From NCBI GenBank assembly GCA_026397405.1, contig JAPLUW010000001.1:339977-403976 (forward strand): a DNA stretch of 64,000 nt. The letters are read 5' to 3'. The notes under the pieces are model-generated. The model saw only the letters and a list, made by a program, of their open reading frames with translations. It was not told where the DNA came from and ran no database searches. Of this stretch, positions 2,977 to 53,228 are shown piece by piece. Made by a program: the position numbers and the translations under genes. Source of the stretch: Candidatus Adlerbacteria bacterium. GTDB lineage: Bacteria; Patescibacteriota; Minisyncoccia; Phycocordibacterales; SBAW01. Position 1 is the first letter of the stretch. Every line of letters starts with the position of its first letter.

Positions 2977-2982
2977 TTCGGA

Positions 2983-3741: not shown

Positions 3742-3744
3742 TTT

Positions 3745-4134: not shown

Positions 4135-4140
4135 AATATT

Positions 4141-10111: not shown

Positions 10112-10284
10112 TGGCGCAGGACCCTGGAAGCAAATGTCCTTAAGTGATCTACCGGGAGTTCGCTGTCGGGCAGCACCGTGGTGTGGCTCGTAGAACACCC
10201 ACTTTACACAAAAGTAGACACTTGCTTCCCTGGTCCCACAGAGCACCCCGCGTCCGGCGCGGGATTTTCTGTAAAAAACTTTCA

Positions 10285-23045: not shown

Positions 23046-23425
23046 TTGTGGAGATGGGCGGAATTGAACCGCCGTGCAATGAAGTGCTACTGGAGCTTCT
23101 ACGGAGTCTAGTTCGCTTTTTGTTTCTTTAGCGTGTCATGGGCTAAGCGAACGAAATCATGACACCCTGCAGCTCCTTAGTTTCAGCTTCAGACCGAAGC
23201 GGTTTCTGAAGTAATACCTTTGCTATATAACATCCGGTCTCAACCCGCAAAGTGGGGAAGAGTGAATGCGACTAGGCCTTGGCGTAAGCGAAAGCGAAAT
23301 CGTTCGCCGAAAAATACGGCGAGGCAACTGTTTTTGCAGTTATGTTTTCCAGATTTTTAGAGAGGTCTGGGCTCTCACTACGCGCATCCGAATAGATGGC
23401 TTCATTGTCTAGGCCTGGCATCCCC
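23046..23425 (-). ncRNA. ssrA: tmRNA (SsrA)
   Basis: The minus strand shows the tRNA-like 3' end GGCGGTTCAATTCCGCCCATCTCCAC and a 5' GGGGATGCC that pair as an acceptor stem with G3:U70. Internal tag ORF GCG AAC GAT TTC GCT TTC GCT TAC GCC AAG GCC TAG at 23272-23307. Adjacent to smpB. Confidence 0.85.
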
Positions 23426-26437: not shown

Positions 26438-26450
26438 TTTCTGTCTTTTG

Positions 26451-26524
26451 TGTGCCTGCCTGGACTCGAACCAGGGACCGCCGAGGTATAAGCTCGGAGC
26501 TCTAACCAACTGAGCTACAGGCAC
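26451..26524 (-). tRNA. tRNA with anticodon UAU (tRNA-Ile, AUA decoder)
   Basis: Manual cloverleaf: acceptor GTGCCTG/CAGGCAC, D-arm GCTC...GAGC, anticodon stem CCGAG/CTCGG with loop CTTATAC (anticodon TAT), T-arm CCTGG-TTCGAGT-CCAGG. Confidence 0.7.
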
Positions 26525-31808: not shown

Positions 31809-33422
31809 ATGCATATAGTAAAAAAGGTTATCTCATACATACGACACCTTCCTCTGAAGTATTCCCTAGGTGGGGGAGCGGCTATTGCTGTCGCACTTGT
31901 CTTGGGTGTGCATATGCTCACACGCCCAGATGCTGGTGCAACACTGGCGCCACAAGTGTCCCACGTGCGCATTGCTTCGGTCGCGAGCCTTTCATCCCAA
32001 ACAGCGGGGCCATTGCCGGTTACTGGTACCGTTACCTCGCTTAACGAAGCAGTTATTCTTGCACAAAGCTCGGGCGAAGTTGTGGTACTTAACCGCGAAC
32101 TAGGTGACTACGTATCCGCGGGCACCATTATTGCCCAGCTCGAAAACAGCAGCCAGCGTGCGGCGGTGCTCCAAGCGCAGGGTGCGTACGACGCTGCGCA
32201 GGCAACATTTGCAAACACAAGTGGCACCAATGCGACAAACTCGGGCATTAGTGCTGCGCAGGCAAAACAAAATGTAATTAATGCACAAAACGCTGCCGAC
32301 ACGTCACTTCAAAGTCTCTACAGTGCGCTCGACGATGCAGTGCACACCAAAGCAGACCTTTTGTTTGTTGATCCACATACAAACCCAAAACTTATATTGA
32401 CCGTCTCTGACAGCCAGCTGCTTATTACTTTGCAAAACGAACGCGGACAGCTTGACCTGACACTTGCAAATGCAAGCACTCTCGCAAATAAAACATCTCG
32501 CACTGACACCGATGCAGACATTGCTGCCATGAATGCACACGCACGTCTCATTTCGACCTTCCTTAACAACTTGGTTGATGCGGTCAACAAGTCTATACCA
32601 AGCCAGACTGTCTCTGCGTCGCAAATTGCGGCGTTTCAGGCATCGGTTGGTGTTGCGCGCACATCTGTCACGAGCGCTGTCGCTGCGCTTGCGGGAGCCA
32701 AGGTCTCGTACGACAACGCAGTTGCAAGTGCGGCGGCAGCAACAAATACTGCAGGGACGGGAACGTCAAACAGTATCAGCATTGCAGAAGCAAATGTGAC
32801 ACAAGCACAAGGTGCATTAAATGCAGCGCGTGCAACACTTGAAAAAACAATTATCCGTTCGCCAATTTCAGGCACTATTGTGAGTCTCCCCCTCACGCGC
32901 GGCGGGTTTGTGTCCATGGCGACTCAAGTTGCACAAGTGTCGAACCCTAGCGCACTCGAAGTAAAAGCGTATGTGACTCCAAATGACGCAAAAACTCTTG
33001 CAGTCGGAGGCGCTGCGGTTATAGGTGAAGGGACACAAGGAGTAATTGTCTCAATTGCGCCAGCACTCGACCCAACAACAGGCAAGATTTTGGTCACGGT
33101 GGGTATTGTCGGGAGTCAAAGTGCACTGACCGACGGCGAAACAACCACCGTTTCTATTGCCCGTGCTACTGCTGCACAAAAACCAAAAATAAAAAATGCA
33201 TCAACAGATATTCTTATTCCTATTATTGCGGCAAAAATTACTCCCGAAGGCCCGATAGCATTTACGGTCAGCTCCTCTACGTTGCAGCAAATTCCTATTA
33301 CGCTCGGGACCATACTCGGTAGCCAAGTAACAGTATTAACAGGTCTTACAGGGGAGTCGGTAATCGTCACAGACGCTCGCGGCCTTTCAAACGGCCAAAC
33401 AGTGGTTGTCGACACACACTAA
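31809..33422 (+). CDS. Efflux RND transporter periplasmic adaptor (membrane fusion protein, HlyD family)
   Basis: N-terminal TM, a long Ala/Gln-rich coiled coil, a lipoyl-like domain (IIRSPISGTIVSLP) and a beta-barrel domain. Translationally coupled to the downstream RND permease. Confidence 0.7.
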   Translation: MHIVKKVISYIRHLPLKYSLGGGAAIAVALVLGVHMLTRPDAGATLAPQVSHVRIASVASLSSQTAGPLPVTGTVTSLNEAVILAQSSGEVVVLNRELGDYVSAGTIIAQLENSSQRAAVLQAQGAYDAAQATFANTSGTNATNSGISAAQAKQNVINAQNAADTSLQSLYSALDDAVHTKADLLFVDPHTNPKLILTVSDSQLLITLQNERGQLDLTLANASTLANKTSRTDTDADIAAMNAHARLISTFLNNLVDAVNKSIPSQTVSASQIAAFQASVGVARTSVTSAVAALAGAKVSYDNAVASAAAATNTAGTGTSNSISIAEANVTQAQGALNAARATLEKTIIRSPISGTIVSLPLTRGGFVSMATQVAQVSNPSALEVKAYVTPNDAKTLAVGGAAVIGEGTQGVIVSIAPALDPTTGKILVTVGIVGSQSALTDGETTTVSIARATAAQKPKIKNASTDILIPIIAAKITPEGPIAFTVSSSTLQQIPITLGTILGSQVTVLTGLTGESVIVTDARGLSNGQTVVVDTH

Positions 33423-33425
33423 CGT

Positions 33426-36400
33426 ATGCTTTGGCTTTGGAACTTTTTTCTTGAACGGAAACAGTTTAGCTACGTACTTATTGGTACGCTGGTTATTGCA
33501 GGGTTCTACTCGTTACTCCAGATCCCAAAGGAAAATTCGCCATCTATTGTTATACCCGACGGCATTGTGTCGGTTGCACTGCCAGGTGCGTCGGCTGCCG
33601 ACATGGAGACGCTTGTTACCGACAAACTCGAAAACAAAATTTCGGGGTTGAGCAACGTACACAAAGTTACTTCCAATTCGAGCGACGGCGTGTCTGTTGT
33701 AACAGTCGAATTTGATGCAAGCGCCGACGTTACTCAGTCGATACAGGAACTGCGTGATGTTGTCGCAAAAGCAGTGCCGGAACTTCCTACAGATGCTACG
33801 ACACCGCAGGTAAGTAAAGTCGATATCAGTAACCAGCCGGTGCTTGTTGTTTCTATTTCGGGAGACTTACCACTTACAGAATTTTCTGCACTCGGCACTA
33901 CCATTTCTGACGAGATAAAAAGTGTTACAGGGGTGTCTGACATTTCTATTGCCGGCGTACCCGACCGGCAAGTCACAGTTGTTGTCAGTAAGGAGCAACT
34001 TCAACAGTACGGCCTGCGGCTTATCGATGTTATTGCGGCTATTCGTGCGGCAAATGTTGCGGCACCTGCCGGAAGTATTTCTATGGATGGTGTTAACTAC
34101 AACGTTAACTTTAAAGGTGGCATTACCGACCCAAAGGAAATACAAGACATTGCCGTCGGGTCAAAAAATAATATTCCTATATATGTGCGCGATATTGCAG
34201 TAGTTTCAGACGCGCTTGCTCCTGCAACAACATACTCGCGCCTCTCCCTTGGCGGCAAACCGAGCAACCAGGCAATGACGCTGCTTATTTCAAAACAAGC
34301 AGGTGCAAGTGTGCAGGGCGTTGCCGATGCAGTCAAAGCAAAAGTAGCAAGCATGCAGCAAGGGACGTTGAAAGGGCTCGATGTATTTATCTCTCCGTCG
34401 ACCGACCAAGGTGTCCAGGTGCGTAAACAGCTGGGTGACTTAACCAAAACAGGGTTGGAAACAGTGGGGCTCGTTATTATTGTGCTGCTTCTGACCATCG
34501 GATGGCGCGAGTCAATTGTAGCCGCCCTCGCCATACCGCTGTCGTTCCTCATTGCGTTTATTGGGCTGTACTTCACCGGCAATACACTTAACTTCATAAG
34601 CCTCTTTGCACTTATTTTGGCGGTAGGTATTTTGGTGGACTCCGGCATTGTGGTGACAGAAGCTATTCACGCCCGCATGAAGGTGCACGGCAACCCCATG
34701 GATGCTGCACGTGCGGCGCTACACGACTATGCGTGGCCGCTTATTGCGGGAACTATGGCAACGGTCGCAGTGTTCGCTCCACTCTTTTTTATCTCCGGCA
34801 TCATAGGTAAATTTATTGCGGGTATTCCATACACACTTATCTTTGTGCTTATGGCGTCGATTTTTGTGGCGCTCGGCATTGTCCCACTTATTGCAGTGTT
34901 GTTTACCAAGCAATCAGGACAGAGCCGGTTTGAAGAGTGGCAGGAAATGTATACCGACAAGGCAACGCATTGGTACAAAAATAATCTACACAAAATCCTG
35001 GCGAGTGCGCGTTTGCAACGCCGTTTTTTGTGGACGCTCGGTATATTGTTTACCCTCTCGCTCGCGCTGCCATTTACGGGCCTGGTGCAGACAACATTCT
35101 TTCCACAAGACGACCAAGACTTTGTGTATATCAACATCCAAAAACCCCAAGGCACAACATTGTCCACAACTGACCTTACGGTCCGCGAAATCGAAGAATT
35201 GCTCTATGCGGACCCGGACATTTCATCACTACAAACAACAGTAGGACAAAGCTCTGGTGTGGCAGGGGGCGGGGGCTCTGCGGGCAGCAACCAAGCAAAT
35301 ATTACGGTCAACTTGCCGCTTGGTCATAAAAAAACCAGTACCGAAATTGCAAACGAATTGGGGCAGCGCCTTGCAGTTGTAACAGATGCGTCGGTCCAAG
35401 TACTGCAAGCAAACAACGGCCCGTCTGCGGGTGCGCCTATCCAAATTCAGTTTAAAGGAGACAACCTTAACGACTTGGTCAAAGCAGCAGAAGCAGGGAA
35501 GCAACTGCTCGCTACTATTCCGCACGTCACCAACGTTACGGCAACAACACAAAACAATGGAACCGAGTTTGACTTGACCGTTAACAGAGGTAAGGCCACA
35601 GCGCTAGGTTTGAGCACGCAAGTTGTCGCACAAACATTGCGTGCTGCTATACAAGGCACCAAGGCAACCAGCATCACACAGCCATCTAAAGACATCGACG
35701 TCGTGGTTAAGCTCAACTTAAATGCCAACTACACCGACCCGTCTGACACATCCCGCACGACAATTGATACGATAAAAAACCTCACCATACAGGGTGCTGC
35801 AGGGCCGGTGCTGCTTGGTACGGTCCTCGACGACACGCTGGGCCCAAGCAATGCAAACATTGCCCATATAGAAAAAACTCGAGTCGAAACAATTTCTGCC
35901 TACCCCGACGACAAAACAACCGCAACTGCAGTGGTCGCAGAATTTCAAAAACGTGTAACAGAGTTGCGGTTGCCGGCAGGTGTTGCCGTCGCATACGGTG
36001 GTGAGACAGAAGACATCACGCGTTCGTTTATAGAAATGTTTGTTGCACTTATTGCAGGGCTCGTGCTGATGTTCATGATTCTTATTTTGTGTTTTAACTC
36101 CATTCGCTACACCTTCCAGTTGCTGCTTATTGTGCCACTCTCGCTTATTGGTGTGCTCGACGGTTTGGCACTTACCGGGCAGCCGGTGTCGTTTACGTCG
36201 CTGCTTGGCATCATTGCGCTTGGTGGCGTGATTATTAACCACGCGATTATTTTGATGGACTCGATGATCCATCAGCTCCACGCCGCGCCGAACATGGCAC
36301 TTATTGACTCGGTCGTAGAATCTTCTGCAACACGCCTACGTCCTATTTTCCTCACCACCGTTACAACCATTGTTGGTATGATCCCGCTTGCAGAGTCCAA

Positions 36401-36521
36401 CCCTACGTGGGGGCCGCTCGCATTTTCAGTTATGTTTGGACTTGGGTTTGCTATCTGCCTTACGCTCGTACTCGTTCCCGTATTATTTTTCCGCACACAA
36501 CAAAAGAAGGGACTAAAATAA
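33426..36521 (+). CDS. RND efflux transporter permease (AcrB/HAE1-like)
   Basis: 1031 aa with the 12-TM pseudo-repeat architecture. Conserved RND TM4/TM10 regions (GILVDSGIVVTEAI..., GVIINHAIILMD). Confidence 0.8.
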   Translation: MLWLWNFFLERKQFSYVLIGTLVIAGFYSLLQIPKENSPSIVIPDGIVSVALPGASAADMETLVTDKLENKISGLSNVHKVTSNSSDGVSVVTVEFDASADVTQSIQELRDVVAKAVPELPTDATTPQVSKVDISNQPVLVVSISGDLPLTEFSALGTTISDEIKSVTGVSDISIAGVPDRQVTVVVSKEQLQQYGLRLIDVIAAIRAANVAAPAGSISMDGVNYNVNFKGGITDPKEIQDIAVGSKNNIPIYVRDIAVVSDALAPATTYSRLSLGGKPSNQAMTLLISKQAGASVQGVADAVKAKVASMQQGTLKGLDVFISPSTDQGVQVRKQLGDLTKTGLETVGLVIIVLLLTIGWRESIVAALAIPLSFLIAFIGLYFTGNTLNFISLFALILAVGILVDSGIVVTEAIHARMKVHGNPMDAARAALHDYAWPLIAGTMATVAVFAPLFFISGIIGKFIAGIPYTLIFVLMASIFVALGIVPLIAVLFTKQSGQSRFEEWQEMYTDKATHWYKNNLHKILASARLQRRFLWTLGILFTLSLALPFTGLVQTTFFPQDDQDFVYINIQKPQGTTLSTTDLTVREIEELLYADPDISSLQTTVGQSSGVAGGGGSAGSNQANITVNLPLGHKKTSTEIANELGQRLAVVTDASVQVLQANNGPSAGAPIQIQFKGDNLNDLVKAAEAGKQLLATIPHVTNVTATTQNNGTEFDLTVNRGKATALGLSTQVVAQTLRAAIQGTKATSITQPSKDIDVVVKLNLNANYTDPSDTSRTTIDTIKNLTIQGAAGPVLLGTVLDDTLGPSNANIAHIEKTRVETISAYPDDKTTATAVVAEFQKRVTELRLPAGVAVAYGGETEDITRSFIEMFVALIAGLVLMFMILILCFNSIRYTFQLLLIVPLSLIGVLDGLALTGQPVSFTSLLGIIALGGVIINHAIILMDSMIHQLHAAPNMALIDSVVESSATRLRPIFLTTVTTIVGMIPLAESNPTWGPLAFSVMFGLGFAICLTLVLVPVLFFRTQQKKGLK

Positions 36522-39977: not shown

Positions 39978-41822
39978 ATGGACCTACTCACGCTTCTTTT
40001 ACAAACTGGAGCTATAGACGCTACGCTCGTGCCTGCTCTCCGGCTAGAGCTCGGCAAACCTGGCGCAAACGCAGAGGAGGTGTTTCTTGCTGCAGGTGTT
40101 CCGGCCGAAGAAATTCTTAAAGCTAAGGGTGCGTATTACGGCACCCCTGTGCGCGAGCTTGGGTCCGAACCTGTGCCGTTTAGCACACTTAGCTATATTC
40201 CCGAAGAATCTGCGAGGCACTACCACTTTGTCCCGCTTGGGGTAGAAGACGGCGCGCTGCTTGTTGGTGTAACCGACCCCGACAATCTTGAGGCACGCGA
40301 TGCACTGACGTTTATTTCGGCAAAAGTGGGGATGCCGTACAAAGTATTTCTTATAAGTGAGGCTGACTTTGCAAAACTCCTTCTCGAATATAAAGGACTC
40401 TCCGGTGAAGTGGGAAAAGCGTTGAATGACCTCGAAACTGAAAGTACTACAGACATTCACGCCGAAGAAACAAAGCGCAATATTTCTATCGAAGACGAAG
40501 AGGTGACAGACACAGCAGAGGCGGTGAGCGAAGGTGCGCCTGTGACAAAAATTGTTGCGACGGTGCTGCAGCATGCCTCCGAGCAGCGCGCGTCTGACAT
40601 CCATATCGAACCTATGGCCGAACAAACTCGTGTGCGGTTTCGTATCGATGGTGTGCTTATCACCAACTTAACACTACCTTCCAAAGTACACACGTCGGTT
40701 GTGGCGCGTATCAAAGTGCTGTCTAACATGCGTCTGGACGAAAAGCGCAAACCTCAAGACGGCCGTTTTTCTGCACGGGTTGGTACTGACAAAATAGACT
40801 TTCGTGTTTCGACATTTCCAACCTACTATGGCGAAAAGGTAGTGATGCGTATTTTGGGCTCTGCTGCGCAAGACTTACGGCTGGAAAGTTTGGGCATGTC
40901 CGAGCGCGACATTGCACTTATCCGTACCGCGATAAAAAAACCCTACGGTCTGGTGTTGGTGTCGGGCCCAACAGGTTCGGGTAAGTCGACCACCTTGTAT
41001 GCGCTGTTAAATGAAATTGATCGCGAAGGACAGAATGTACTTTCGCTCGAGGACCCGGTTGAATATACGATCCCTGGTGTATCGCAAAGCCAAATTCGCC
41101 CTGAAATCGGATACACGTTTGCAACAGGCTTGCGCACCACACTGCGCCAGGACCCAAATATTATTATGGTCGGCGAAATCCGCGACGCAGAAACTGCAAA
41201 CTTGGCCGTGCAAGCAGCACTTACGGGCCACTTGGTGCTTTCAACCATACACACCAACAACTCTATTGGTATTATCCCGCGCCTCCTCGATATGGGTGTC
41301 GAGCCCTACCTTATACCACCAGTGCTTATTTTAGGTATGGCACAACGCCTTGTTCGTACGTTATGCAAAAACGGCGGCAAAGTAGTTACTGCAGAACAAA
41401 GTATGCAGGAAATGTTTACAAAAGAGTTTGAAGACTTACCTGAAGAATATAGAAAAAAATTACCCCCGCTCAACACCGTGCACCGGCTGCAAGTCACGCC
41501 CGAATGTCCGTCGGGTACACAGGGACGTATTGCAGTAGTTGAAGTGTTCGATATGAATCCAGAACTTGAAAAAGCGATACTCGAACACAAACCCGAAGAA
41601 GAAATGTTTGCAACGGTGCGTAGACACGGCATGTTGACCATGAAAGAAGATGCTATTATTAAATCTGTAAAAGGTATTATTCCGTTCGAAGAAGTAAACA
41701 CACTCGGAGGTCAGTATGAACTGGAAGACGATGTAGAAGCAGCCCCCATGCCGCCTCCAGCTCCCGAAGCGCTTGCTGCAGATGGAGATAACGATGCACC
41801 AGGAAAAGAAGTACAAATTTAA
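39978..41822 (+). CDS. pilB: Type IV pilus assembly ATPase PilB (GspE family)
   Basis: N-terminal GSPII-like domain, Walker A GPTGSGKSTT, Asp box, Walker B, His box, and a C-terminal Cys cluster. Confidence 0.85.
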   Translation: MDLLTLLLQTGAIDATLVPALRLELGKPGANAEEVFLAAGVPAEEILKAKGAYYGTPVRELGSEPVPFSTLSYIPEESARHYHFVPLGVEDGALLVGVTDPDNLEARDALTFISAKVGMPYKVFLISEADFAKLLLEYKGLSGEVGKALNDLETESTTDIHAEETKRNISIEDEEVTDTAEAVSEGAPVTKIVATVLQHASEQRASDIHIEPMAEQTRVRFRIDGVLITNLTLPSKVHTSVVARIKVLSNMRLDEKRKPQDGRFSARVGTDKIDFRVSTFPTYYGEKVVMRILGSAAQDLRLESLGMSERDIALIRTAIKKPYGLVLVSGPTGSGKSTTLYALLNEIDREGQNVLSLEDPVEYTIPGVSQSQIRPEIGYTFATGLRTTLRQDPNIIMVGEIRDAETANLAVQAALTGHLVLSTIHTNNSIGIIPRLLDMGVEPYLIPPVLILGMAQRLVRTLCKNGGKVVTAEQSMQEMFTKEFEDLPEEYRKKLPPLNTVHRLQVTPECPSGTQGRIAVVEVFDMNPELEKAILEHKPEEEMFATVRRHGMLTMKEDAIIKSVKGIIPFEEVNTLGGQYELEDDVEAAPMPPPAPEALAADGDNDAPGKEVQI

Positions 41823-41831
41823 GAACATTCC

Positions 41832-42893
41832 ATGGACTACAAAAAGAAACTAGCTGAACTTATCGCACTCCTTATTGCGCAAGGCGCCTCGGACTTGCAC
41901 TTGGGTGCAGGTATCCAGCCGGTTATCCGTGTATCGCACACACTCACGCCGCTTTTGTCTGAGCCGGTACTTTCAAACGACGACGTCATGGGCCTCCTTG
42001 CAGAAATGTTGAGCCCCGAACATAAAAAACGCTTTTTAGAAACACAAGAAGTAGACTTTTCGTATGCCTACGAAGACAAGGCGCGGTTCCGCGGGAACGG
42101 CTACTTCGAACGTGGACATGTGGGTGTGGCACTCCGCTTAATTCCTAAAGTTATCAAGACACTCGCCGAGTTGAACTTGCCGCCGTCTATAGAAACGTTC
42201 GCTGCGCGCCAGCAAGGGTTCTTTTTGGTGGTGGGTCCGGTAGGGCAGGGAAAGACAACCACGCTTGCGGCACTCATAGACAAAATAAATTCTGAGCGCA
42301 CCGAACACATTGTCACGATTGAAGACCCGATAGAATATTTGTTCGAAAATAAAAAATCGCTCATTGACCAGCGCGAAGTCCATATAGACACGGCGGACTT
42401 CGAGTCGGGTCTGCGTTCGGTATTTCGCCAAGATGCAAACGTGCTTATGATAGGCGAAATGCGCACGCCAGAAACTATGGCCGCAGCGGTAACAGCTGCC
42501 GAGACTGGACACTTGGTGTTTTCGACATTGCACACCAACAACGCAGCGCAAACAATAGACCGCATCATCGACTCGTTTCCCGGGGGCCAGCAAGACCAAA
42601 TCCGCACGCAGCTTGCGGCCTCTCTTGCAGGTATTTTCTCTCAGCGGCTTATCCCGCGCGTTTCAGGTGGCCTTGTCCCTGCATGCGAGCTACTTATAAA
42701 TACTGGTGCTGTCGCAAACTTAATACGCGAAAAACGCACACACGAAATACAGACCGTCATAGAAACTGGTTCCGACGAAGGCATGATAGACATGAACCGT
42801 TCGTTAGCCGAAATGGTCCGCATGGGGGAGATAACAATAGAAAGTGCCTATGCCCGTTCGTGGAGCCCAAAAACCCTGGAGCGTTTGTTGTAA
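41832..42893 (+). CDS. pilT: Twitching motility ATPase PilT
   Basis: Walker A GPVGQGKTTT, AIRNLIRE-like motif (AVANLIREKRTHEI). About 350 aa. Confidence 0.85.
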   Translation: MDYKKKLAELIALLIAQGASDLHLGAGIQPVIRVSHTLTPLLSEPVLSNDDVMGLLAEMLSPEHKKRFLETQEVDFSYAYEDKARFRGNGYFERGHVGVALRLIPKVIKTLAELNLPPSIETFAARQQGFFLVVGPVGQGKTTTLAALIDKINSERTEHIVTIEDPIEYLFENKKSLIDQREVHIDTADFESGLRSVFRQDANVLMIGEMRTPETMAAAVTAAETGHLVFSTLHTNNAAQTIDRIIDSFPGGQQDQIRTQLAASLAGIFSQRLIPRVSGGLVPACELLINTGAVANLIREKRTHEIQTVIETGSDEGMIDMNRSLAEMVRMGEITIESAYARSWSPKTLERLL

Positions 42894-42899
42894 TATTGT

Positions 42900-44120
42900 A
42901 TGTCAGAATTTAAGTACGAAGGACTCGACCAAACAGGTAAGCCGCAGAGCGGCACAGCCAATGCGCCTACCCAGGACGCTGCGGTGGAAGCTCTGCAGCG
43001 CCGCGGGCTCACGCTTACCTCCATTTCTCCTATAAACCAAGACAACAACGTACGCGCGCTTTTAAACAACACATCTTTTTTTGGAGGAGTATCTAACCGC
43101 GATGTGGTGCTGTTGTCGCGCCAACTTGCAACGCTGTTTGAAGCGCAAGTATCAGCCCTGCGCGTATTTCGCTTGCTTGCAGAGCAGGCCGAAAAACCAT
43201 TTTTGCGCAAAGCACTTACCGACGTAGGGGACGACCTCCAGAGCGGTGACTCAATTTCCAAAGCACTCGCAAAACATCCAAAAGTCTTTTCGGACTTTTA
43301 CGTCAACATGGTTCGTGCGGGCGAAGAGTCGGGCAAGCTCGACCAAACCTTTTTGTTTTTGGCAGACTATATAGACCGCTCGTACGAATTAACCGGCAAG
43401 GCACGCAACGCGCTTATATACCCGGCGTTTATTATGGTCACCTTTGTTGCGGTGATGACGCTCATGCTTACCGTTGTTATCCCAAAAATTGGCTCGATTT
43501 TGGAAGGGGACGGCCAGCAGTTGCCACTCTTTACACAAATAATACTTAGCTTCAGCGCGTTCTTAACCGACTACGGTATTTTTATACTTATTGCACTTAT
43601 TGTTGGTGGGTACTTTCTCTACCGATATGCACAAACGCCCACAGGTAAACTTGCCATGAGCCGTTTCAAACTTTCTATTCCCTACGTTGGCGAGTTGTAC
43701 CGCAAGCTCTACTTGTCGCGGTTTGCAGACAACATGCACGTGATGCTTACGTCGGGCATTAGCGCCGTCCGTTCGCTTGAAGTAACGTCGAGCGTTATCG
43801 AAAACCAAATATACGAAGGGATAATCCTCGAAGCTCTCGAAGGCGTAAAAGCCGGCCGTTCGATTTCAGAAACATTTAGCCATTACCCGCAGGAAATCCC
43901 GTCTATTATGGTGCAAATGCTCAAAATAGGTGAAGAAACGGGGGAACTCGGGAATATTTTGCAGCGCATGGCCAAGTTTTATAACCGCGAAGTAAACGCC
44001 GCGGTCGACACCCTCGTGTCGCTCATAGAGCCGGCCCTTATTGTTGCACTGGCGCTCGGTGTCGGCTTCCTTCTTGCTGCGGTATTGCTCCCAATTTACA
44101 ACAGCACGGCAAATATTTAG
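42900..44120 (+). CDS. pilC: Type IV pilus inner-membrane platform protein PilC (GspF family)
   Basis: 406 aa with duplicated T2SSF domains and three TM segments. Confidence 0.8.
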
Positions 44121-44182
44121 GCCTATATAGGCTTATCCCCACCGCATACAGGCATAGAAGCTCTGTGCGCTATACTGTACCT

Positions 44183-44710
44183 ATGCACACATTTTTCAAA
44201 AAAACGTCCACCCGAGGTTTTACCCTTATCGAACTCCTCGTTGTTATCGCTATCATCGGCATTCTGGCCGCAATTGTGCTCGTGTCTTTGACGGGTGCTC
44301 GTACGAAGGCGCGCGATGCAGCACGCGTAGCATCACTTCAAGAAATGGGTAAGGCAATTGCAGTTGCTGACACCGACCCTGCACTACCTCTGACTGGGTG
44401 CACCGGTGGCGGCAGTTCTGCAACACCAAATTCAACTACCAACAAGGCAAGTGCCTGCACAGGGCCTGCTCCTATAAGCTTTGCAAGTTACATTGACCCT
44501 GCAGTTACATCGTCAGGTGCTCCATGCACCAGTAGCCCAACCGCAGCTTGTAACTACCTCATTGCTAAACAAGACGGCTCTTCCGGAAACCCGACAACTC
44601 AAAATTACGAAATCTGTTCATATTTGGAAGTTGGGTCGGGCGCAATACCTGCTGGAAAAGTAATGATAAACAGCAACAGTGGTGGTACCGTAACGACCGG
44701 TTGTAACTAA
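44183..44710 (+). CDS. Type IV pilin (major pilin candidate 1)
   Basis: Class III signal peptide: [21 protein letters not shown], with the G/F cleavage site and Glu5. Confidence 0.8.
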
Positions 44711-45273
44711 TGAAAAAAAGAGGTCTCACCCATAGGGCTATAACCGAGGGTTTTACTCTCATAGAGCTCCTTGTTGTCATAGCCATCATTGGTATTTTGG
44801 CATCTATTGTCATGGTTAACTTGGCGAGCGCAAGGAAAAAGACCCGCGACGCAAAACGCATATCCGATATTAAAAACCTCCAACTTTCGCTCGAGGAATA
44901 TTACAACGACAATTTAAAATATCCGACCGTACTGGGTTCCCTTATACCAAATTATTTACCGAACATTCCCTATGACCCAAACGGTACTGTTGTCTGCAAC
45001 ATAGGTTCGGAAGCGAGCTGTTATGCATATGCGGCACTCAATGTTACGGGCGGCACTGCCGACTGCTACGCGGTCCCTGCAAGCAAGTACCACCTTGGCG
45101 CTGCGCTTGAAGCAAACAACGCCATAACGCAAGATGCAGACCTGGCCGCGGCGCCGGCGGGGTTTCAAAAATGTGCAACGAGCAACGCCAACTTTAACGG
45201 TGTAGCAACAGACTGTGTGGGTGCTACGGCAGGTTTTGGTGGTGCCGACAACTGTTACGACGTCACTAACTAA
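44710..45273 (+). CDS. Type IV pilin (candidate 2)
   Basis: [21 protein letters not shown] prepilin motif. Confidence 0.8.
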   Translation: MKKRGLTHRAITEGFTLIELLVVIAIIGILASIVMVNLASARKKTRDAKRISDIKNLQLSLEEYYNDNLKYPTVLGSLIPNYLPNIPYDPNGTVVCNIGSEASCYAYAALNVTGGTADCYAVPASKYHLGAALEANNAITQDADLAAAPAGFQKCATSNANFNGVATDCVGATAGFGGADNCYDVTN

Positions 45274-46029
45274 TGTACGAACTTTCTGCTCTTGGGCTTT
45301 GGAGTATAGGTCTTGGGCTCATCGCCGGTAGTTTTTTAAATGCACTTTCGTTCCGGCCGTTCTATGTGTATGCGGTGTGGGCATACGCTCCGCGCGCTTG
45401 ACCTTATTCCACTTTTTTCATACGTGTTTCTTTTGGGTACATGTCGCTATTGTGGCACACGTATTTCAATGCAATATCCGCTGGTTGAACTTGCCGCTGC
45501 CATGCTTTCGTTTGGAGTCTTCACTGCAGTGCAGACACCACTCATGTATGCATTTTGGTTTTTTGTGTGGATGGTTATTTTGTTTATCGTTATATACGAC
45601 ATACGCCACACTGTTATTCCGTGGAGTTGTTCGCTGTTGCTTATAGGGTTGTCCCTCGTGTCTCTTTTTTTGTCAGGTATGCCATCTTTTGCCGCGCTTC
45701 TTTCGGGGCCACTTTTGGCGCTGCCACTTTTAGCATTGTCATTTTTTTCTCGTGGTCGGTGGATGGGGTGGGGCGACGGGGTCTTCCAACTTTCACTCGG
45801 GTGGTTCCTCGGGCTCGTGCCAGCTCTGAGTGCACTCGCACTTTCGGTTTGGACAGGCGCCTTCGTTGGCGTCGGGCTTGTTCTGGTCTCACAACTTCCA
45901 TGGAAATACCGCTCGCGTGGGTTTACAATACAAAGTGAGCTTCCCTTTGCGCCGTTCTTAGCGCTTGGGGCCCTGCTCGTGTACTTCTTTCATGTCGATC
46001 TTTTTTCAACATATTTTCTCCTCTGGTAA
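45273..46029 (+). pseudogene. pilD: Prepilin peptidase PilD (A24 family) split by a +1 frameshift
   Basis: Frame 0 (45273-45401) encodes the canonical N-terminus MYELSALGLWSIGLGLIAGSFLNALSFR..., then reaches a stop. Frame +1 (45340-46029) encodes the rest, including CMRCGH...CRYCG and WMGWGDG. The shift must fall between about 45340 and 45366. Confidence 0.6.
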
Positions 46030-46651
46030 GAGCAAGTTCGCGCTGGGTAGGAGCCGCGGTTTTACACTTATCGAATTGCTCGTAGTATCGGCAATTATTG
46101 TCATCATTACGATGGTGCTGTTGTTGCGGCAGTCGCGGTTCGACAGCTCAACTATTTTGCGTAGCCTCGCGTACAGCGTGGCACTCTCGGTGCGGCAAAC
46201 CCAGGTGTACGGTACCAGCGTGCTCGGCAGTAATAATTCGGGTGCCGTGAGTTATGCATCTGCATACGGACTTTATTTTTCTGCTACAACACCTTCTTCC
46301 TATGTCTTGTTTGCCGACTTTAATAACAACGGTGTGTACGACTCCGCAGAGGAAACAGTTAAAATATTTTCATTAAACACCGGCTACGTCATAAGCGAAG
46401 TCTGTACAAAACTCTCGGGCGGCTCGAACCGCTGCACCGGTGCAGACGACTCTTCGGGCATGCGCACCATTACGTCGCTCAACATTTTGTTTAAACGTCC
46501 AAACCCCGATGCGGTTTTTACAACCGACATTAACGGCGAGTCCTATATCAGTGGGTATATTCAAGTGCGCTCGGGTGACGGCACTACGCGTAGCGTTGTG
46601 ATAACATCCCCCGGGCAAATAAGCGTCCAAGCGCCAGGAACACTGCCATGA
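45992..46651 (+). CDS. Minor pilin / pseudopilin
   Basis: [18 protein letters not shown] prepilin motif. Start uncertain (long leader). Confidence 0.65.
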   Translation: MSIFFQHIFSSGKSKFALGRSRGFTLIELLVVSAIIVIITMVLLLRQSRFDSSTILRSLAYSVALSVRQTQVYGTSVLGSNNSGAVSYASAYGLYFSATTPSSYVLFADFNNNGVYDSAEETVKIFSLNTGYVISEVCTKLSGGSNRCTGADDSSGMRTITSLNILFKRPNPDAVFTTDINGESYISGYIQVRSGDGTTRSVVITSPGQISVQAPGTLP

Positions 46652-47229
46652 ACAACCGAGTCTCACCCATAGGACTACGACCGAGGGGTTTTACACTTAT
46701 AGAAATGCTCGTGTCGGTTGCTATATTTAGCACGGTGATGGTTGTTGCACTTGGTGCGCTCCTTTCGCTTTCGGAAGCGAACCGCAGAGCAGAATTGTTG
46801 TCATCGGCAACTAACAACTTTGACTCGGCAATAGACAGCATGTCGCGCGCTATTCGCACCGGCATAAATTACCATTGCGGCGCAGGGACACTTACGGCAA
46901 CGCTCGACTGCACCAGCGCTGGTGCCACACAGTTTGCGTTTTTGGCAGCAACTGGCAACGAAACAGTCTACCAGTTTGGCACTATTGGCTGCCCAAACAA
47001 TGTCGGGTGTATTTTGCGCTCAACGGACGGAGGAGCATCGTATGCAAGCATTACCTCGCCGGAGATTTTTGTCACATCCCTTAAATTTTTTGGCCTCGGT
47101 GCATTTAACACAGACAACATACAGCCCCGCGTTGTCATGCTTATTTCTGGCTATGTCGTGGTTAAGGGTGCGCAAAAATCAGTATTTAACTTTCAAACGT
47201 CCGTAACACAACGCTTTTATGACAGGTAA
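46648..47229 (+). CDS. Minor pilin / pseudopilin
   Basis: PRGFTLIEMLVSVAIFSTV motif. Confidence 0.7.
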   Translation: MNNRVSPIGLRPRGFTLIEMLVSVAIFSTVMVVALGALLSLSEANRRAELLSSATNNFDSAIDSMSRAIRTGINYHCGAGTLTATLDCTSAGATQFAFLAATGNETVYQFGTIGCPNNVGCILRSTDGGASYASITSPEIFVTSLKFFGLGAFNTDNIQPRVVMLISGYVVVKGAQKSVFNFQTSVTQRFYDR

Positions 47230-47833
47230 AAAACCACATATGCGTGCACGAGGGTCTGTTCGCCGGCAGGCAGGGTTTACACTTGTTGAAACTCTGCTCG
47301 CTATCCTTATTTTGACAACTGCAATTGCGGGGCCACTTACTATCGCTGCAAAAGGTTTAAGTTTGGCGCTCATCGCAAAAGACCAAGTGGCCGCAACATT
47401 TTTAGCGCAAGACGCTGTAGAGTATGTCCGGTTTATCCGCGACACAAACAGGCTTTCAAACAACAGCGACTGGCTGGCAGGGCTCGACGGTGGTAACAAC
47501 GGCCACACGACAAGCAACAGCGGCGCGCAGCCAAATTGTACAAATGGTAATGCGTGTGTGGTCGACTCGTTACAAGACCTCGTTTCAAACTGTGGCTTGG
47601 TTACTACTGGGTGTGCGTCTACGCCACTCTACTTTGACCCTACAAACCAATACTACACATATGTCACGGCTGGAAATACGCAAACTATTTTTTCGCGGAC
47701 GATAAGTATAGAAACACCTTCACAGGGCGGCAACACCAGCGAAGCAGAACTGACCGTCCTCGTGCAGTGGAAGGACGTTGGCGGAGTTGTGCGTTCTGTT
47801 GTACTGCGCGAAAACTTGCTTAACTGGCAGTAA
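47219..47833 (+). CDS. Minor pilin / pseudopilin (PilV-like)
   Basis: QAGFTLVETLLAILIL motif. Confidence 0.65.
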   Translation: MTGKKPHMRARGSVRRQAGFTLVETLLAILILTTAIAGPLTIAAKGLSLALIAKDQVAATFLAQDAVEYVRFIRDTNRLSNNSDWLAGLDGGNNGHTTSNSGAQPNCTNGNACVVDSLQDLVSNCGLVTTGCASTPLYFDPTNQYYTYVTAGNTQTIFSRTISIETPSQGGNTSEAELTVLVQWKDVGGVVRSVVLRENLLNWQ

Positions 47834-47839
47834 CTATAT

Positions 47840-48376
47840 ATGAAAAAAAATTCCAAAGGCTTTACTATATTTTTTGCAACATTGGTTGCGTCTTTGGCGC
47901 TGGCCATTGGTCTTGCTATCTACGACATAACCGTGCGCCAGCTTGACCTTGCAACCACGGTGATACAGTCGCAGTACGCAATTTACGCTGCCGACAGCGG
48001 TGCCGAATGCGCACTCTACTGGGACTCAAAATTTATTGGGGCAGGAAGTGCGTTTGCTACCTCGAGCGCTTCGACGTACCCAACATCAGGTGTTGTGTGT
48101 GGTGCATACGACATTGCCGCAAAAGGGACTCCGCCGACCCCGTTTGGTCCAGAACCTGGCGGGTGGGGTACATGGAATGTTGGATCTACCGACACTGCCG
48201 CGACTACTACATTTACATTAACCTTCCCGTCGTACTCGTACTGTGCACGCGTAGAGGTGGGGAAGGCGGTCAACAATTTGGGTATCGTGTCGACCACGAT
48301 ACGTTCGCACGGGTACAACACCTGTGCCAAAAACGCGCAAAATCAGCTGGAACGCGAGTTGAAAGTGAGCTATTAA
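47840..48376 (+). CDS. Pilin-like protein with a degenerate prepilin motif (KGFTIFF, no Glu5)
   Basis: N-terminal hydrophobic pilin-like helix. Position in the pilin array. Confidence 0.5.
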   Translation: MKKNSKGFTIFFATLVASLALAIGLAIYDITVRQLDLATTVIQSQYAIYAADSGAECALYWDSKFIGAGSAFATSSASTYPTSGVVCGAYDIAAKGTPPTPFGPEPGGWGTWNVGSTDTAATTTFTLTFPSYSYCARVEVGKAVNNLGIVSTTIRSHGYNTCAKNAQNQLERELKVSY

Positions 48377-48390: not shown

Positions 48391-50418
<2,028 letters not shown>

Positions 50419-50433: not shown

Positions 50434-50736
50434 ATGATTTCTAAGGAAGAAATAGAAAAGCTCGCGGAGCTCTCACGCTTAAAGCTGGGGGAGGAGGAGA
50501 TTGCCGCCCTGCAAAAGGATATTTCCAGTATTCTCGACTATGTGGGGCAGATTAGTGCTTTAGAGGGTGGAGAGATAAAAAAGGAAGTTGGCCTCAACCA
50601 CAACGTCATGCGGGAGGATATTCCCTATGTAAAAGAAAACCCGCTGCTTGAGTCGCGCGACGCGGTGCTCGAAGCATTGCCTAAGCGCGAAGGCGACTAC
50701 GCTGTCGTGCGAAAAATCTTACATAAAAATGACTAA
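50434..50736 (+). CDS. gatC: Asp-tRNA(Asn)/Glu-tRNA(Gln) amidotransferase subunit C
   Basis: 100 aa. GatC-like sequence (EEIEKLAELSRLKL...), located upstream of gatA. Confidence 0.75.
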   Translation: MISKEEIEKLAELSRLKLGEEEIAALQKDISSILDYVGQISALEGGEIKKEVGLNHNVMREDIPYVKENPLLESRDAVLEALPKREGDYAVVRKILHKND

Positions 50737-52165
50737 ATTAAACGAACTTTCAATAATAGAAGCATCTGCGAAGTTGCAAGCAGGAGAAATCACTGCGGTC
50801 GACTTGGCTCGTGCGTGCCTAGCAGAAATTGAGCGGGACAGGCCTGAAGGAACAGTAGACCGTCTCAATGCATACTTGGAAGTGTTTACTGACGTGGAAG
50901 AGCAGGCGAAGCAAGCAGACGAGCGCCGCAAAGCAGGAGAGTCGCATCCACTGCTCGGTATCCCGCTTGCTATCAAAGACAATATTTTAATTAAAGGTAA
51001 AAAAGTTTCTGCAGCAAGTAAGATGCTCGAGCACTACAGCGCAACCTATGACGCAACAGTCATTCAAAAATTAAAAGACGCGGGGACTGTCTTTCTTGGT
51101 CGTACCAACATGGACGAGTTTGCGCTCGGTGGCTCGACGGAAAATTCGGCATTCGGGCCAACTAAAAACCCGCATGATCCTACACGTGTTGCCGGTGGTA
51201 CATCAGGGGGCTCAGCCGCAGCAGTGGCGGCGCATATGTGCCTCGGAGCTTTGGGCACTGACACGGGCGGCTCGGTACGTAACCCAGCAAGTTTTTGCGG
51301 CGTGGTTGGTTTAAAACCAACGTACGGCACGGTGTCGCGCTCGGGGTTAATTGCTGCGGTGTCGTCGTTTGACCAAGCAGGGCCTATAACTAAAACAGTT
51401 GAAGATGCGAAATTAATTTTTGACACTATCCGCGGCAAAGATATTCTTGACGCAACTTCTATCGATGAAGATCTATACCCGAAACACACACAGAAAAAAA
51501 TTATAGGGGTCATCAAATTAAACGTTGAGACAGCAAAAGAAAATATGGATGCTGTTAACTCTACGGTTCAGGTATTCTCTGCGGCTATCAAAAAACTCGA
51601 AAATGAAGGATTTAAGATTGTAGAAATTAACTTGCCTTCAATGCAGCCCGCACTTGCGGCGTACTACATCACCAACTTTGCTGAAGTGTCGTCCAACCTG
51701 TCGCGCTTTGACGGTGTGCGCTACGGACTTTCACTTTCGGGCGAGTCACTTTTTGATGACTATGCAAAAAGTAGAGGGGAGGGGTTTGGTGCAGAAACCA
51801 GGCGACGTATTATTTTAGGCACCTACGTGCTTTCTGCTGGGTACTACGACGCATATTACGGAAAGGCTGTGGCTGCACGCGAGCAACTACGTAAAGAATT
51901 TGAACAGACGTTTAAAGATGTTGATGTTATTGCGACGCCAACAATGCCGACACCCGCGTGGAAGATTGGGGAAAAATCTGACCCACTTTCTGCCTACTTG
52001 GCTGACATTTTTACTGTGACCGCAAACCTAACGGGCAACCCGGCAATTTCTGTGCCCATGGGCACAGTCGACGGCCTTCCCGTTGGCATACAGTTTACTG
52101 CGGCGCATGGAGACGAAGAAACTTTGTTTCGGGTGGGGAAGAATGTAGCAGGCGAAGAAAAATAG
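50729..52165 (+). CDS. gatA: Glu-tRNA(Gln) amidotransferase subunit A (amidase signature family)
   Basis: Amidase signature GGSSGGSAAAVAA with the Ser-cisSer-Lys triad. Start at ATG 50729, overlapping the gatC end. Confidence 0.85.
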   Translation: MTKLNELSIIEASAKLQAGEITAVDLARACLAEIERDRPEGTVDRLNAYLEVFTDVEEQAKQADERRKAGESHPLLGIPLAIKDNILIKGKKVSAASKMLEHYSATYDATVIQKLKDAGTVFLGRTNMDEFALGGSTENSAFGPTKNPHDPTRVAGGTSGGSAAAVAAHMCLGALGTDTGGSVRNPASFCGVVGLKPTYGTVSRSGLIAAVSSFDQAGPITKTVEDAKLIFDTIRGKDILDATSIDEDLYPKHTQKKIIGVIKLNVETAKENMDAVNSTVQVFSAAIKKLENEGFKIVEINLPSMQPALAAYYITNFAEVSSNLSRFDGVRYGLSLSGESLFDDYAKSRGEGFGAETRRRIILGTYVLSAGYYDAYYGKAVAAREQLRKEFEQTFKDVDVIATPTMPTPAWKIGEKSDPLSAYLADIFTVTANLTGNPAISVPMGTVDGLPVGIQFTAAHGDEETLFRVGKNVAGEEK

Positions 52166-52188
52166 GGCGTACAATAGGAAGGTAATCT

Positions 52189-52764
52189 ATGTTCACTATC
52201 GACTTTGCAGCTATATTTACGCGCATCTACGAACTCGTGCATGGCACGCATGTCGACGTACACAGCCTCCAAAGCCAACTGATAAGCACGGCTAGTATTA
52301 TTGCGGTCGTAGGTTTAAGTCTGGCGCTTGTGATGCTTGTGACCTTAGTGTTTGTAAATATTCGTTTGCATGAGTTGGAGCATCATGGATTCCATGCGAT
52401 GGAAGTACACGACCATGCAGAGCACGAGCATGAAGTGGTGCACGAAGCAAAAAACCCACGCTGGGAAGCCGTGTCGATGCTTGCAAGTTCTGGAAACGAA
52501 AGCGACTGGCGCCGTGCAATTATGGAAGCCGACATTATGCTGTCGGTGTTGCTTAACGAAAAAGGCTACAGCGGTGCGACCCTGGGCGACCAATTAAAAA
52601 TGGCAAATCCGCTGCAATTTACCACCGTGGACATTGCATGGGAGGCGCACCGTATGCGCAATGCCCTGGCGCACTTGGGTGAAGCGTTTCCGTTGAGTGA
52701 GCGTGACGCACGCGCAACCATAGACCAATATCGCCGTGTATTTGAAGAGTTCGACTATATTTGA
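52189..52764 (+). CDS. Membrane-anchored protein with a His-rich linker and a C-terminal DUF4145/HEPN-like domain
   Basis: TM helix (IIAVVGLSLALVMLVTLVFV), followed by HELEHHGFHAMEVHDHAEHEHEVVHE. The C-terminus AWEAHRMRNALAHLG fits the R-x(4-6)-H / N..AH motif of DUF4145-type HEPN domains. Family assignment is tentative. Confidence 0.45.
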   Translation: MFTIDFAAIFTRIYELVHGTHVDVHSLQSQLISTASIIAVVGLSLALVMLVTLVFVNIRLHELEHHGFHAMEVHDHAEHEHEVVHEAKNPRWEAVSMLASSGNESDWRRAIMEADIMLSVLLNEKGYSGATLGDQLKMANPLQFTTVDIAWEAHRMRNALAHLGEAFPLSERDARATIDQYRRVFEEFDYI

Positions 52765-52808
52765 TAGACTCCTTTTATACGGGCGCGTGGCTCTGTAGCA
52801 GTGCAAAA

Positions 52809-52879
52809 TACTACATATAGCGGGGTGGAGGAGTAGTACCTCACAAGGCTCATAACCTTGGGACCCGGGTGCAAATCCC
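52809..52879 (+). tRNA. tRNA-Met (anticodon CAU), initiator-like
   Basis: Anticodon loop CTCATAA, unpaired 1:72 (A:A), A11:U24 in the D-stem, and a TGCAAAT T-loop. All of these are initiator hallmarks. Confidence 0.75.
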
Positions 52880-52884
52880 GGCCC

Positions 52885-52920
52885 CGCAACAAGATACAAA
52901 ACAGCCCCGCTCCTGCGGGA
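52885..52920 (+). terminator. Hairpin CAGCCCCGC-TCCT-GCGGGACTG followed by TTTTGT
   Basis: Near-perfect inverted repeat after the initiator tRNA. Confidence 0.45.
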
Positions 52921-52964
52921 CTGTTTTGTATTAACGGTTGAAGCAAAGGAGATAAAATGCTAGC

Positions 52965-53038
52965 GTGTCTGTACGTCGGTGTAGCTCAGGTAGTTAGAGC
53001 ATGGCACTCATAAAGCCAAGGTCGAAGGTGCAAGTCCT
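52965..53038 (+). tRNA. tRNA with CAU anticodon (elongator Met or Ile2/LAU)
   Basis: Acceptor GTCGGTG/CATCGAC, D-arm GCTC-AGGTAGTTAG-AGC, anticodon loop CTCATAA, T-arm GAAGG-TGCAAGT-CCTTC. Confidence 0.75.
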
Positions 53039-53120
53039 TCCATCGACACAAGTGAAAAGGTGATTGGAAAAAGGCGCATTCTGCGCTAGAATCGCTTTGT
53101 TCGCTTAAGGTTCCTCATTT

Positions 53121-53195
53121 GCGGCCATAGCTCAATTTGGTTAGAGCGCTTCCCTGTCACGGAAGAGGTTGCCGGTTCGAGTCCGGTTGGCCGCG
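53121..53195 (+). tRNA. tRNA-Asp (GUC)
   Basis: Acceptor GCGGCCA/TGGCCGC, anticodon loop CTGTCAC, T-arm GCCGG-TTCGAGT-CCGGT. Confidence 0.85.
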
Positions 53196-53228
53196 CATCA
53201 CATTTGCTGTGTACAATGGTAGGTACAC

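Follow-up and report, generated by a model that had tools for sequence, protein, structure and literature searches.

A vertically inherited family of membrane-anchored HEPN-domain proteins encoded downstream of gatA in Paceibacteria

To our knowledge, the HEPN RNases of prokaryotes are known almost only as weapons, that is, as toxins, abortive-infection proteins and CRISPR effectors, and Csx28 is the only characterised small HEPN protein with a transmembrane (TM) helix that we know of. Csx28 is a type VI-B2 CRISPR accessory protein that depends on Cas13b and acts in defence. In eukaryotes, Ire1 has one TM helix that joins a sensor domain across the membrane to a HEPN-type RNase in the cytoplasm. 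Membrane tethering is also found in the housekeeping endoribonucleases that initiate RNA decay, RNase Y in Firmicutes and RNase E in Proteobacteria, and in RNase Y a helical linker comes after the N-terminal TM helix.

Bacterial membrane-linked HEPN proteins were predicted in a census of the superfamily (Anantharaman et al., 2013; PMC3710099), both as 'TM and SH3 (Firmicutes)' fusions of DUF4145 and as HEPN domains of the Abi2/Swt1 family attached C-terminally to one conserved TM helix. For such proteins, it was proposed that a surface stimulus shifts the conformation of the HEPN domain and leads to RNA cleavage at the membrane (PMC3710099). The chemistry of HEPN RNases is metal-independent and leaves 2´,3´-cyclic phosphate ends, and RNase L, Ire1 and PrrC all need the Arg, the His and the polar residue following the Arg to be catalytically active (PMC3710099). 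A literature search for experimentally studied members of the 2013 TM-HEPN groups, or of the family described here, found none.

We analysed a 64,000-nt stretch of DNA from a Candidatus Adlerbacteria bacterium (contig JAPLUW010000001.1; hereafter the window), which encodes a 191-aa protein, referred to here as X, directly downstream of gatA. Like X, the TM-HEPN groups of 2013 have a TM helix and then a HEPN domain, predicted to be cytoplasmic, in which the Rx4-6H motif is intact; an external domain is optional, and is SH3 in some. Unlike X, they have a TM domain with a WP signature and a preceding conserved all-alpha globular domain. The X family was seen only in Patescibacteria, which the 2013 census did not sample, and is a core, syntenic gene, whereas the 2013 groups are sporadic. 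The type itself (TM plus cytoplasmic HEPN, sometimes with SH3) was predicted in 2013; what is new is the family and its status as a core gene.

Architecture of X and its C-terminal HEPN domain

The features of the X locus are collected in Table 1. The one TM helix given in the preliminary description corresponds to a single strong hydrophobic segment at residues 37–55, and the acidic His-cluster linker noted there (HELEHHGFHAMEVHDHAEHEHEVVHE) is present at residues 61–86. The C-terminal region reads AWEAH-RM-RNALAH-LG (AWEAHRMRNALAHLG, residues 150–164), in which R157-N-A-L-A-H162 is an Rx4H motif, bearing out the reported Rx4-6H signature.

Table 1. Features of the X locus, in positions of the window
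Feature	Position	Strand	Details and basis
ligA	48400-50418	+	Co-oriented, upstream of X; ORFs, Pfam labels of equivalents in related loci, tblastn synteny (86 loci)
gatC	50434-50736	+	Co-oriented, upstream of X; basis as for ligA
gatA	about 50729-52165	+	Directly upstream of X; basis as for ligA
gatA stop codon	52163-52165		TAG
Shine-Dalgarno AGGAAGG	52176-52182	+	6 nt 5´ of the X ATG; read from sequence
ORF X	52189..52764	+	ATG start, 191 aa plus stop; membrane-anchored HEPN-domain protein; ORF list
N-terminal segment, aa 1-36	52189..52296	+	Short amphipathic helix, aa 6-18 (AF2 model)
TM helix, aa 37-55	52297..52353	+	Kyte-Doolittle window 2.92; helix pLDDT 92-98 (AF2 model)
His/Glu-rich juxtamembrane linker, aa 61-86	52369..52446	+	Includes E64-H65-x-G67-F68-H69-x-x-E72
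C-terminal HEPN domain, aa 88-191	52450..52761	+	Predicted to be cytoplasmic
H154 codon	52648-52650		
Rx4H motif, R157-N158-A-L-A161-H162	52657..52674	+	Putative RNase active site
tRNA-Met	52819-52890	+	ARAGORN
tRNA-Met, tRNA-Met, tRNA-Asp	52819-53196		Downstream of X; ARAGORN
First terminator-like hairpin after X	52906-52919	+	Beyond the first tRNA-Met; terminator scan

The invariant module of the family is its C-terminal 106 residues, with the consensus KNxRWexv..h..S.N..DWR.AI.EADImLdelL...GY.G.t.GeKLK......F.TlD.AWEAHkvRN.IAH.G..f.L..rEA.r.I.lY..VF.EF.yI. Across 266 domain sequences, D115, L118, H154, R157, N158, A161, H162, G164 and F185 are 100% conserved, and W92, W107 and W151 are among the residues conserved in at least 95%. 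An Rx4H motif by itself could arise by chance; in this family, R-N-x-x-[A/T]-H is carried by all of the 386 relatives retrieved, and in 262 of the first 269 of them its distance from the C-terminus is exactly 35 residues. The domain is acidic, with a net charge of -4.6 and a pI of about 5.1, and is negative in 98% of the members. This is unusual for a general RNA-binding nuclease and counts against reading X as an RNase.

The structural features of the module were compared with those described for HEPN domains, in which Rx4-6H closes helix 3 or opens the helix 3–4 loop, a polar residue (N, D or H) directly follows the R, and a second conserved acid is found in helix 2, typically within Ex3[KR] (PMC3710099). 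AlphaFold2 run on the X domain alignment gave a model with a pLDDT of 96.5 and a pTM of 0.89. The X motif (domain residues 72–77) falls in the second half of core helix 3 (62–81), with N after the R, and the motif is followed by the invariant G164 and the loop. Helix 2 (domain residues 19–39) contains the invariant D115, and position 113 (E113) is acidic in 98%. The exact Ex3[KR] spacing is absent from X; the nearest pattern, E134-x-x-K137, falls in the insert that separates helices 2 and 3 and itself contains a short helix.

Profile searches point to the same superfamily. The preliminary description had assigned X a C-terminal HEPN domain of DUF4145 type, and of this the HEPN part stood: HEPN-type families dominate the recurring Pfam matches of the soluble domain among 130 divergent members. 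The DUF4145 part fitted only loosely, as HEPN_Swt1 was the best Pfam match and DUF4145 was weaker. HEPN_Swt1 (PF18731) was matched by 16 of 31 close members at E<=1 and by 12 of the 130 divergent members at E<=0.01. The window protein itself matched this profile with E 0.038 and 14.7 bits, and the best member, P0270, with E 1.1e-5 and 26.1 bits over profile positions 19–110 of 115, against a gathering score of 27.5. By comparison, DUF4145 (PF13643; gathering score 23.1) was matched by only two of the 130 at E<=0.01 (best 2.7e-4), and member P0356 reached E 0.079 and 13.5 bits; a Pfam search with the window protein returned no match to DUF4145. Further recurring matches among the 130 members were to HEPN_RiboL-PSP (3), the pEK499_p136 HEPN (1) and CTD11 (3). 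All of the Pfam HEPN matches that we inspected among members of the family were below the gathering cut-off. We therefore did not assign X to DUF4145, whose gathering score was not reached and whose motif layout X resembles, or to the Swt1-like HEPN family, which we treat as a sister family given the sub-threshold best score.

Searches at the level of structure gave weaker matches. With Foldseek, the best E values for the X models were 0.16 and 0.28, which are not significant, and the matches of highest probability were HEPN proteins. The HepT/HEPN toxins (5yep, 7ae2 and 8xdj) and an AF0298-type HEPN protein (2hsb) share only 8–11% identity with X. PDB sequence searches with X alone and with two profiles returned TM-helix noise (a designed TM protein and TMIE) and insignificant fragments, and an NCBIfam profile search gave nothing relevant. 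Collectively, these data place the C-terminal domain of X in the HEPN superfamily (Pfam clan CL0291), nearest the Swt1/Abi2 and DUF4145 groups. Judged by sequence comparison, the X family is a separate HEPN family outside all current Pfam and NCBIfam models, and it deserves its own profile model.

The TM helix lies ~100 aa before the motif throughout the family, and about half of 149 divergent representatives have a second, N-terminal TM helix. Long orthologs, of up to 696 aa, have the order short Lys-rich N-terminus, TM1, ectodomain, TM2, linker and HEPN domain. In many cases, the ectodomain is built from bacterial SH3 repeats (Pfam SH3_3, E 6.6e-14 for P0176 and 6.6e-11 for P0222), with 0 to 4 SH3b repeats of ~80 aa each in positional orthologs, and the place of residues 1–36 of X is taken in orthologs by TM1 plus the ectodomain. 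Because the two-TM orthologs add TM1 and an ectodomain (often SH3b), the HEPN domain is expected to be in the cytoplasm, and the N-terminal segment of X is predicted to be extracytoplasmic. The charges of the window protein (-2 in the N-terminal segment and R59 after the TM helix) agree with an N-out/C-in orientation. Ortholog topology and charge distribution together suggest a constant module of TM helix, ~30-residue linker and HEPN domain, combined with an outside part that varies. The 2013 census predicted cytoplasmic placement for other TM-HEPN proteins as well (PMC3710099).

In size and architecture, X matches Csx28, which is likewise shorter than 200 aa and has a single TM helix at its N-terminus and, at its C-terminus, a HEPN-like four-helix bundle in the cytoplasm. 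Csx28 is an octameric pore without nuclease activity, which shows that a TM-HEPN protein need not be an RNase to function and counts against reading X as one. By the same design, X could form a face-to-back ring that conducts ions or small metabolites, with the HEPN motif serving a structural purpose. Csx28 has a divergent motif, a face-to-back octameric assembly and no RNase activity, whereas the motif of X is canonical and invariant, its ectodomains vary, and its genomic context is one of housekeeping genes without a link to CRISPR. No Pfam CRISPR-associated domains were found among the called genes of nine annotated loci, and Csx28 was absent from the fold-search matches listed. X was considered as a Csx28 and rejected, as neither the association with cas13b nor the divergent motif was found. 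We regard a pore as improbable.

The linker of X contains nine His in 25 residues (binomial P about 3e-8 at the family His frequency of 3.1%). In the close (Adlerbacteria-level) family (alignment A1), E64 and H65 are each conserved at 97% and H69 at 81%, position 72 is acidic in 90%, and these residues form a local motif with G67 and F68. Linker residues are His at an average of 15.5% in this close family and 3–4.5%, equal to background, elsewhere; His-rich linkers recur sporadically in other branches. We rejected both the His-rich linker as a family-defining trait, given its confinement to the Adlerbacteria-level clade, and a single-face His stripe on the linker helix (resultant 0.15, P 0.75). 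A protein devoted primarily to metal handling, in which the His/Glu segment would hold Ni, Zn or Cu for storage, chaperoning or sensing and the C-terminal domain would be secondary, would make use of this density of His and of the clade-conserved E-H-x-G-F-H-x-x-E with its i/i+4 His pair, and the sporadic His-rich linkers of other branches fit such a role. However, the linker His do not fall on one helix face, most of the superfamily lacks the His-richness, and it is the C-terminal domain that is invariant, so that a primary role in metal handling seems barely credible. Since the His are clade-limited and unaligned, metal binding would be at most a clade-specific regulatory add-on. We speculate that in the Adlerbacteria clade the EHxGFHxxE linker may add control by metal or pH.

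Genomic context and inheritance

X is one of a co-oriented series of genes in the window, in the order PilB, PilT, PilC, pseudopilins, ligA, gatC, gatA, X and tRNAs, followed after these tRNAs, again co-oriented, by a membrane ORF, tRNAs, prfB, ftsE, ftsX and pyrG. The location between gatA and a tRNA cluster given in the preliminary description is therefore correct. It had also stated that X stands alone; instead, X is operonically attached to gatA, with a spacer of 23 nt between the gatA stop and the X start, in which we sought a promoter-like or terminator-like site and found none. The tRNA-Met and the hairpin downstream of X likely form the 3´ end of the transcription unit, with the hairpin a weak basis given that the hairpin count in the terminator scan was not above shuffled expectation. 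With the pilus cluster upstream, X was considered as a pilus alignment protein of the PilN/PilO type; this was rejected because the soluble domain of X is an all-alpha HEPN domain.

The same arrangement was found in related genomes. Among the first 86 loci, in which 80 different GTDB species are represented and domain identity falls as low as 44%, a same-strand gatA preceded X in 85, nearly always after gatC and ligA and often after pseudopilins, with a median of 12 nt (interquartile range 5–31 nt) from the gatA stop to the X start. Gene order was unchanged in three further, more divergent branches, so that gatA is upstream of X in 88 of 89 related loci, the sole exception having no upstream DNA. 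The housekeeping gene order was kept in all 89, and the long SH3b forms sit in the identical slot after gatA. The 80 GTDB loci are the best-scoring of at least 581, so that this synteny is that of the closer members of the family. Identity to the window averages 57% for the X domain, 59.5% for GatA and 60.6% for LigA, and the identities of the X domain and GatA are correlated (Spearman 0.77, P 2e-16) much as those of GatA and LigA are (0.75).

The protein closest to X, at 98% identity, is from a Candidatus Adlerbacteria MAG. A word-indexed search returned 331 homologs, nearly all of 191–197 aa and none assigned to a Pfam family. Members of the family are labelled 'hypothetical protein' and, in one case, 'transposase'. 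With phmmer against 1.84 billion cluster representatives (50% identity), there were 1,825 matches at E<=1e-3, 970 of them at E<=1e-10; the names of cluster members were uninformative as to taxon or function. A pattern and tblastn scan found X in at least 581 GTDB species-representative genomes, and the taxa named among these carriers are all Patescibacteria, including Adler-, Nomura-, Kaiser-, Taylor- and Campbellbacteria and Paceibacterota. Several submitters used labels such as 'uncultured Candidatus Saccharibacteria', which are probably generic for CPR. Among the papers listed by full-text searches, none was seen to describe this family.

The preliminary description considered X a candidate minimal defence or stress effector in a frequent integration region, that is, a defence, abortive-infection or stress toxin inserted at a tRNA integration hotspot. 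Most prokaryotic HEPN families are indeed RNases of conflict systems (PMC3710099). In the window, tRNA genes directly follow X, and the downstream genes differ by genome (DUF975, VanY, a DEAD helicase, glycosyltransferases or tRNAs). However, the tRNA neighbours are specific to the window genome, and the slot after gatA is fixed across the related loci, with a short median gap, in place of the integration region that had been claimed. A survey of the genomic contexts of homologs, which had been suggested as a check on neighbouring defence genes, found homologs only in housekeeping contexts in the 89 loci examined: no defence-type Pfam domains occurred among the genes downstream of X in related loci, and no antitoxin, MNT or R-M neighbour was seen there. 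PADLOC (PADLOC-DB v2) assigned X to 0 families at E<=10. Searches for X in 50,697 phage records and in IMG/VR gave no match, and in 72,556 plasmids there was nothing significant (E>=0.03 only). Unlike HepT of MNT-HEPN systems, X has no adjacent MNT antitoxin and is a membrane-anchored core gene. The Tyr after the His that is the AMPylation site in HepT is also missing from X, which has G164.

The conserved gene order, the divergence in step with GatA and LigA and the lack of matches to mobile or defence elements indicate that X is a core gene in a housekeeping operon rather than the cargo of an island. Together with carriage in at least 581 species, this largely refutes the defence reading, which we now hold to be very improbable. 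X is a vertically inherited core gene of the class Paceibacteria (Patescibacteria/CPR).

The position of X also bears on whether the domain is catalytic. Directly after gatC and gatA, X occupies the slot of gatB in canonical gatCAB operons, and gatB is absent from the window. X could thus be a non-catalytic HEPN adaptor or anchor that binds protein, nucleotide or RNA (for example, tRNA) and tethers it to the membrane, with GatCAB or the transamidosome as a candidate partner and with the R, N and H serving binding rather than cleavage. The acidic surface of the domain and the many invariant residues beyond the catalytic triad (W92, W107, W151 and F185) are consistent with this, and non-catalytic HEPN domains are known from the 2013 census, such as those of nucleotidyltransferases and Swt1 (PMC3710099). 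Non-catalytic HEPN domains usually lack Rx4-6H, however (PMC3710099), whereas the X family retains the R, N and H in 100% of its members, very divergent ones included. With ligA and pilin genes in the operon as well, the arrangement looks more like a superoperon than a specific partnership with GatCA. We consider an adaptor function unlikely.

A possible RNase at the inner membrane

The reading that we prefer, with a probability of about 0.55, is that X is a HEPN RNase tethered to the membrane, probably gated by dimerisation, that serves in housekeeping or in signalling. The RNase activity, the dimerisation gating, the substrate and the role of the His residues are what we infer. X would be a bitopic inner-membrane protein, co-transcribed with ligA-gatC-gatA, with its N-terminal segment outside and one TM helix, followed by a juxtamembrane helix of ~30 residues and, in the cytoplasm, the HEPN domain with its R-N-x-x-A-H site intact. 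Judging from HEPN enzymes that have been characterised, X would act as a metal-independent endoribonuclease at the inner membrane face, with a composite active site that would form only upon face-to-face pairing of two HEPN domains. Control of pairing would fall to the TM and juxtamembrane helices, joined in orthologs by the SH3b ectodomain. With pairing controlled in this way and the protein held in the membrane, RNA would be cut there, whether at a low constitutive level or when a cue arrives from the surface or envelope. The cleavage would follow an Ire1-like logic and the proposal of 'stimulus-dependent RNA degradation', and tethering would limit the substrates of X, as for RNase Y. Points against this reading are the sub-threshold Pfam matches, the Foldseek E values, the PDB profile searches, the acidity of the domain and the example of Csx28, and the link of gatCA to X may be a gene order kept by descent that carries no functional meaning.

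The likeness of X to Ire1, the RNase L KEN domain and C6orf70/ERMARD, all of them eukaryotic membrane-linked HEPN RNases, is one of logic and not of orthology. In Ire1 and RNase L, the R-N-x-x-x-H chemistry needs back-to-back or face-to-face pairing. Unlike this group, X has no kinase domain, is far smaller and has an ectodomain that is of SH3b type or absent. The catalytic domains of X and of RNase Y (KH+HD) or RNase E (S1/DNase I-like fold) are unrelated, and a literature search on the status of RNase Y and RNase E in Patescibacteria showed nothing relevant among the papers listed.

A stronger form of this proposal, which we offer tentatively, is that X is an essential, lineage-wide, Ire1-like 'receptor RNase' of Paceibacteria that would cut specific RNAs at the membrane, possibly tRNAs or their precursors in view of the fixed coupling to the genes for a tRNA-dependent amidotransferase. 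Here the ectodomain (from none to several SH3b repeats) or the state of the envelope would control pairing of the HEPN domains, and the SH3b repeats may bind host material or material of the cell's own wall.

The X family combines an intact catalytic motif with the behaviour of a core gene, namely a fixed operon position and a housekeeping rate of divergence, in streamlined genomes that retain little beyond their needs. If X is an active RNase, bacteria too have put HEPN to use in core RNA biology, as eukaryotes have with Ire1, Las1 and Swt1, and CPR bacteria have a candidate for surface-to-RNA signalling or membrane-localised RNA processing. Should the receptor proposal hold, X would be the first bacterial HEPN nuclease in a core housekeeping or signalling role rather than in genetic conflict, and a candidate link from host contact to gene expression in episymbiotic CPR bacteria.

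The pilus genes and the ligA-gatC-gatA block

In the window, the ligA-gatC-gatA block, together with the gene for the membrane-anchored HEPN-domain protein that follows gatA (hereafter the HEPN gene), directly continues the type IV pilus cluster. Upstream of ligA, the junction with a pseudopilin gene is kept in most of the 89 related loci that we compared with the window (L001-L089), and this conservation points to a large conserved superoperon spanning the pilus cluster and ligA-gatC-gatA-HEPN. Immediately after gatA, the HEPN gene occupies the canonical place of gatB; gatB itself was not found among the right-sized ORFs tested in the 64-kb window. Among the 86 loci with a determined distance between gatA and the HEPN gene, the ortholog is separated from gatA by an insertion (~1.5 kb) in a single case, locus L076 (positions 2874-4398 of that locus).

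Features of the window (window positions)
Feature	Position	Strand
RNase J-like beta-CASP/RMMBL nuclease	10144-11664	+
ORF, 670 aa	12309-14318	+
ORF, 829 aa	14393-16879	+
tmRNA, tag AKTVASPYFSANDFAFAYAKA	23048-23425	-
tRNA-Ile, anticodon TAT (UAU)	26450-26524	-
HlyD-like membrane-fusion protein and full-length AcrB-type RND transporter	31809-36518	+
Type IV pilus cluster (PilB, PilT, PilC, several N_methyl pseudopilins)	39978-48376	+
gatC and gatA	50434-52165	
First tRNA-Met after the HEPN gene	52819-52890	+
GC-rich hairpin with T-run, 3´ of the first tRNA-Met	52906-52919	+
ORF, 427 aa	53229-54512	+

The probable 3´ end of the transcription unit

In the plus-strand region 52764-52919, no terminator-like site separates the stop codon of the HEPN gene from the first tRNA-Met; terminators counted in this region did not exceed the shuffled expectation. 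As the terminator-like hairpin comes only after this tRNA, the operon transcript may include the tRNA-Met. Unlike the HEPN gene, the 427-aa ORF is truly surrounded by tRNA genes, with tRNA-Asp on one side and a pair of tRNA-Thr genes on the other; it contains numerous hydrophobic stretches and gave no Pfam match.

A family member and other ORFs

One member of the HEPN protein family, P0160 (228 aa, JGI record), carries the source name "transposase". This looks like a misannotation, because the protein has the TM-linker-HEPN architecture of the family, with a very His-rich linker. Elsewhere in the window, the two neighboring large ORFs gave no Pfam match at E<=1e-3. The HlyD-like/AcrB-type pair (E 4.8e-180 for the transporter) is a curious find in a Patescibacteria genome if such cells are without an outer membrane.

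RNA processing and decoding

Both the RNase J-like nuclease and the tmRNA bear on any inventory of RNA-processing enzymes in the Adlerbacteria genome. In most bacteria, AUA is read by a CAU tRNA carrying lysidine, which makes a tRNA-Ile with UAU encoded in the genome uncommon; the gene detected here may be informative on decoding in this lineage.
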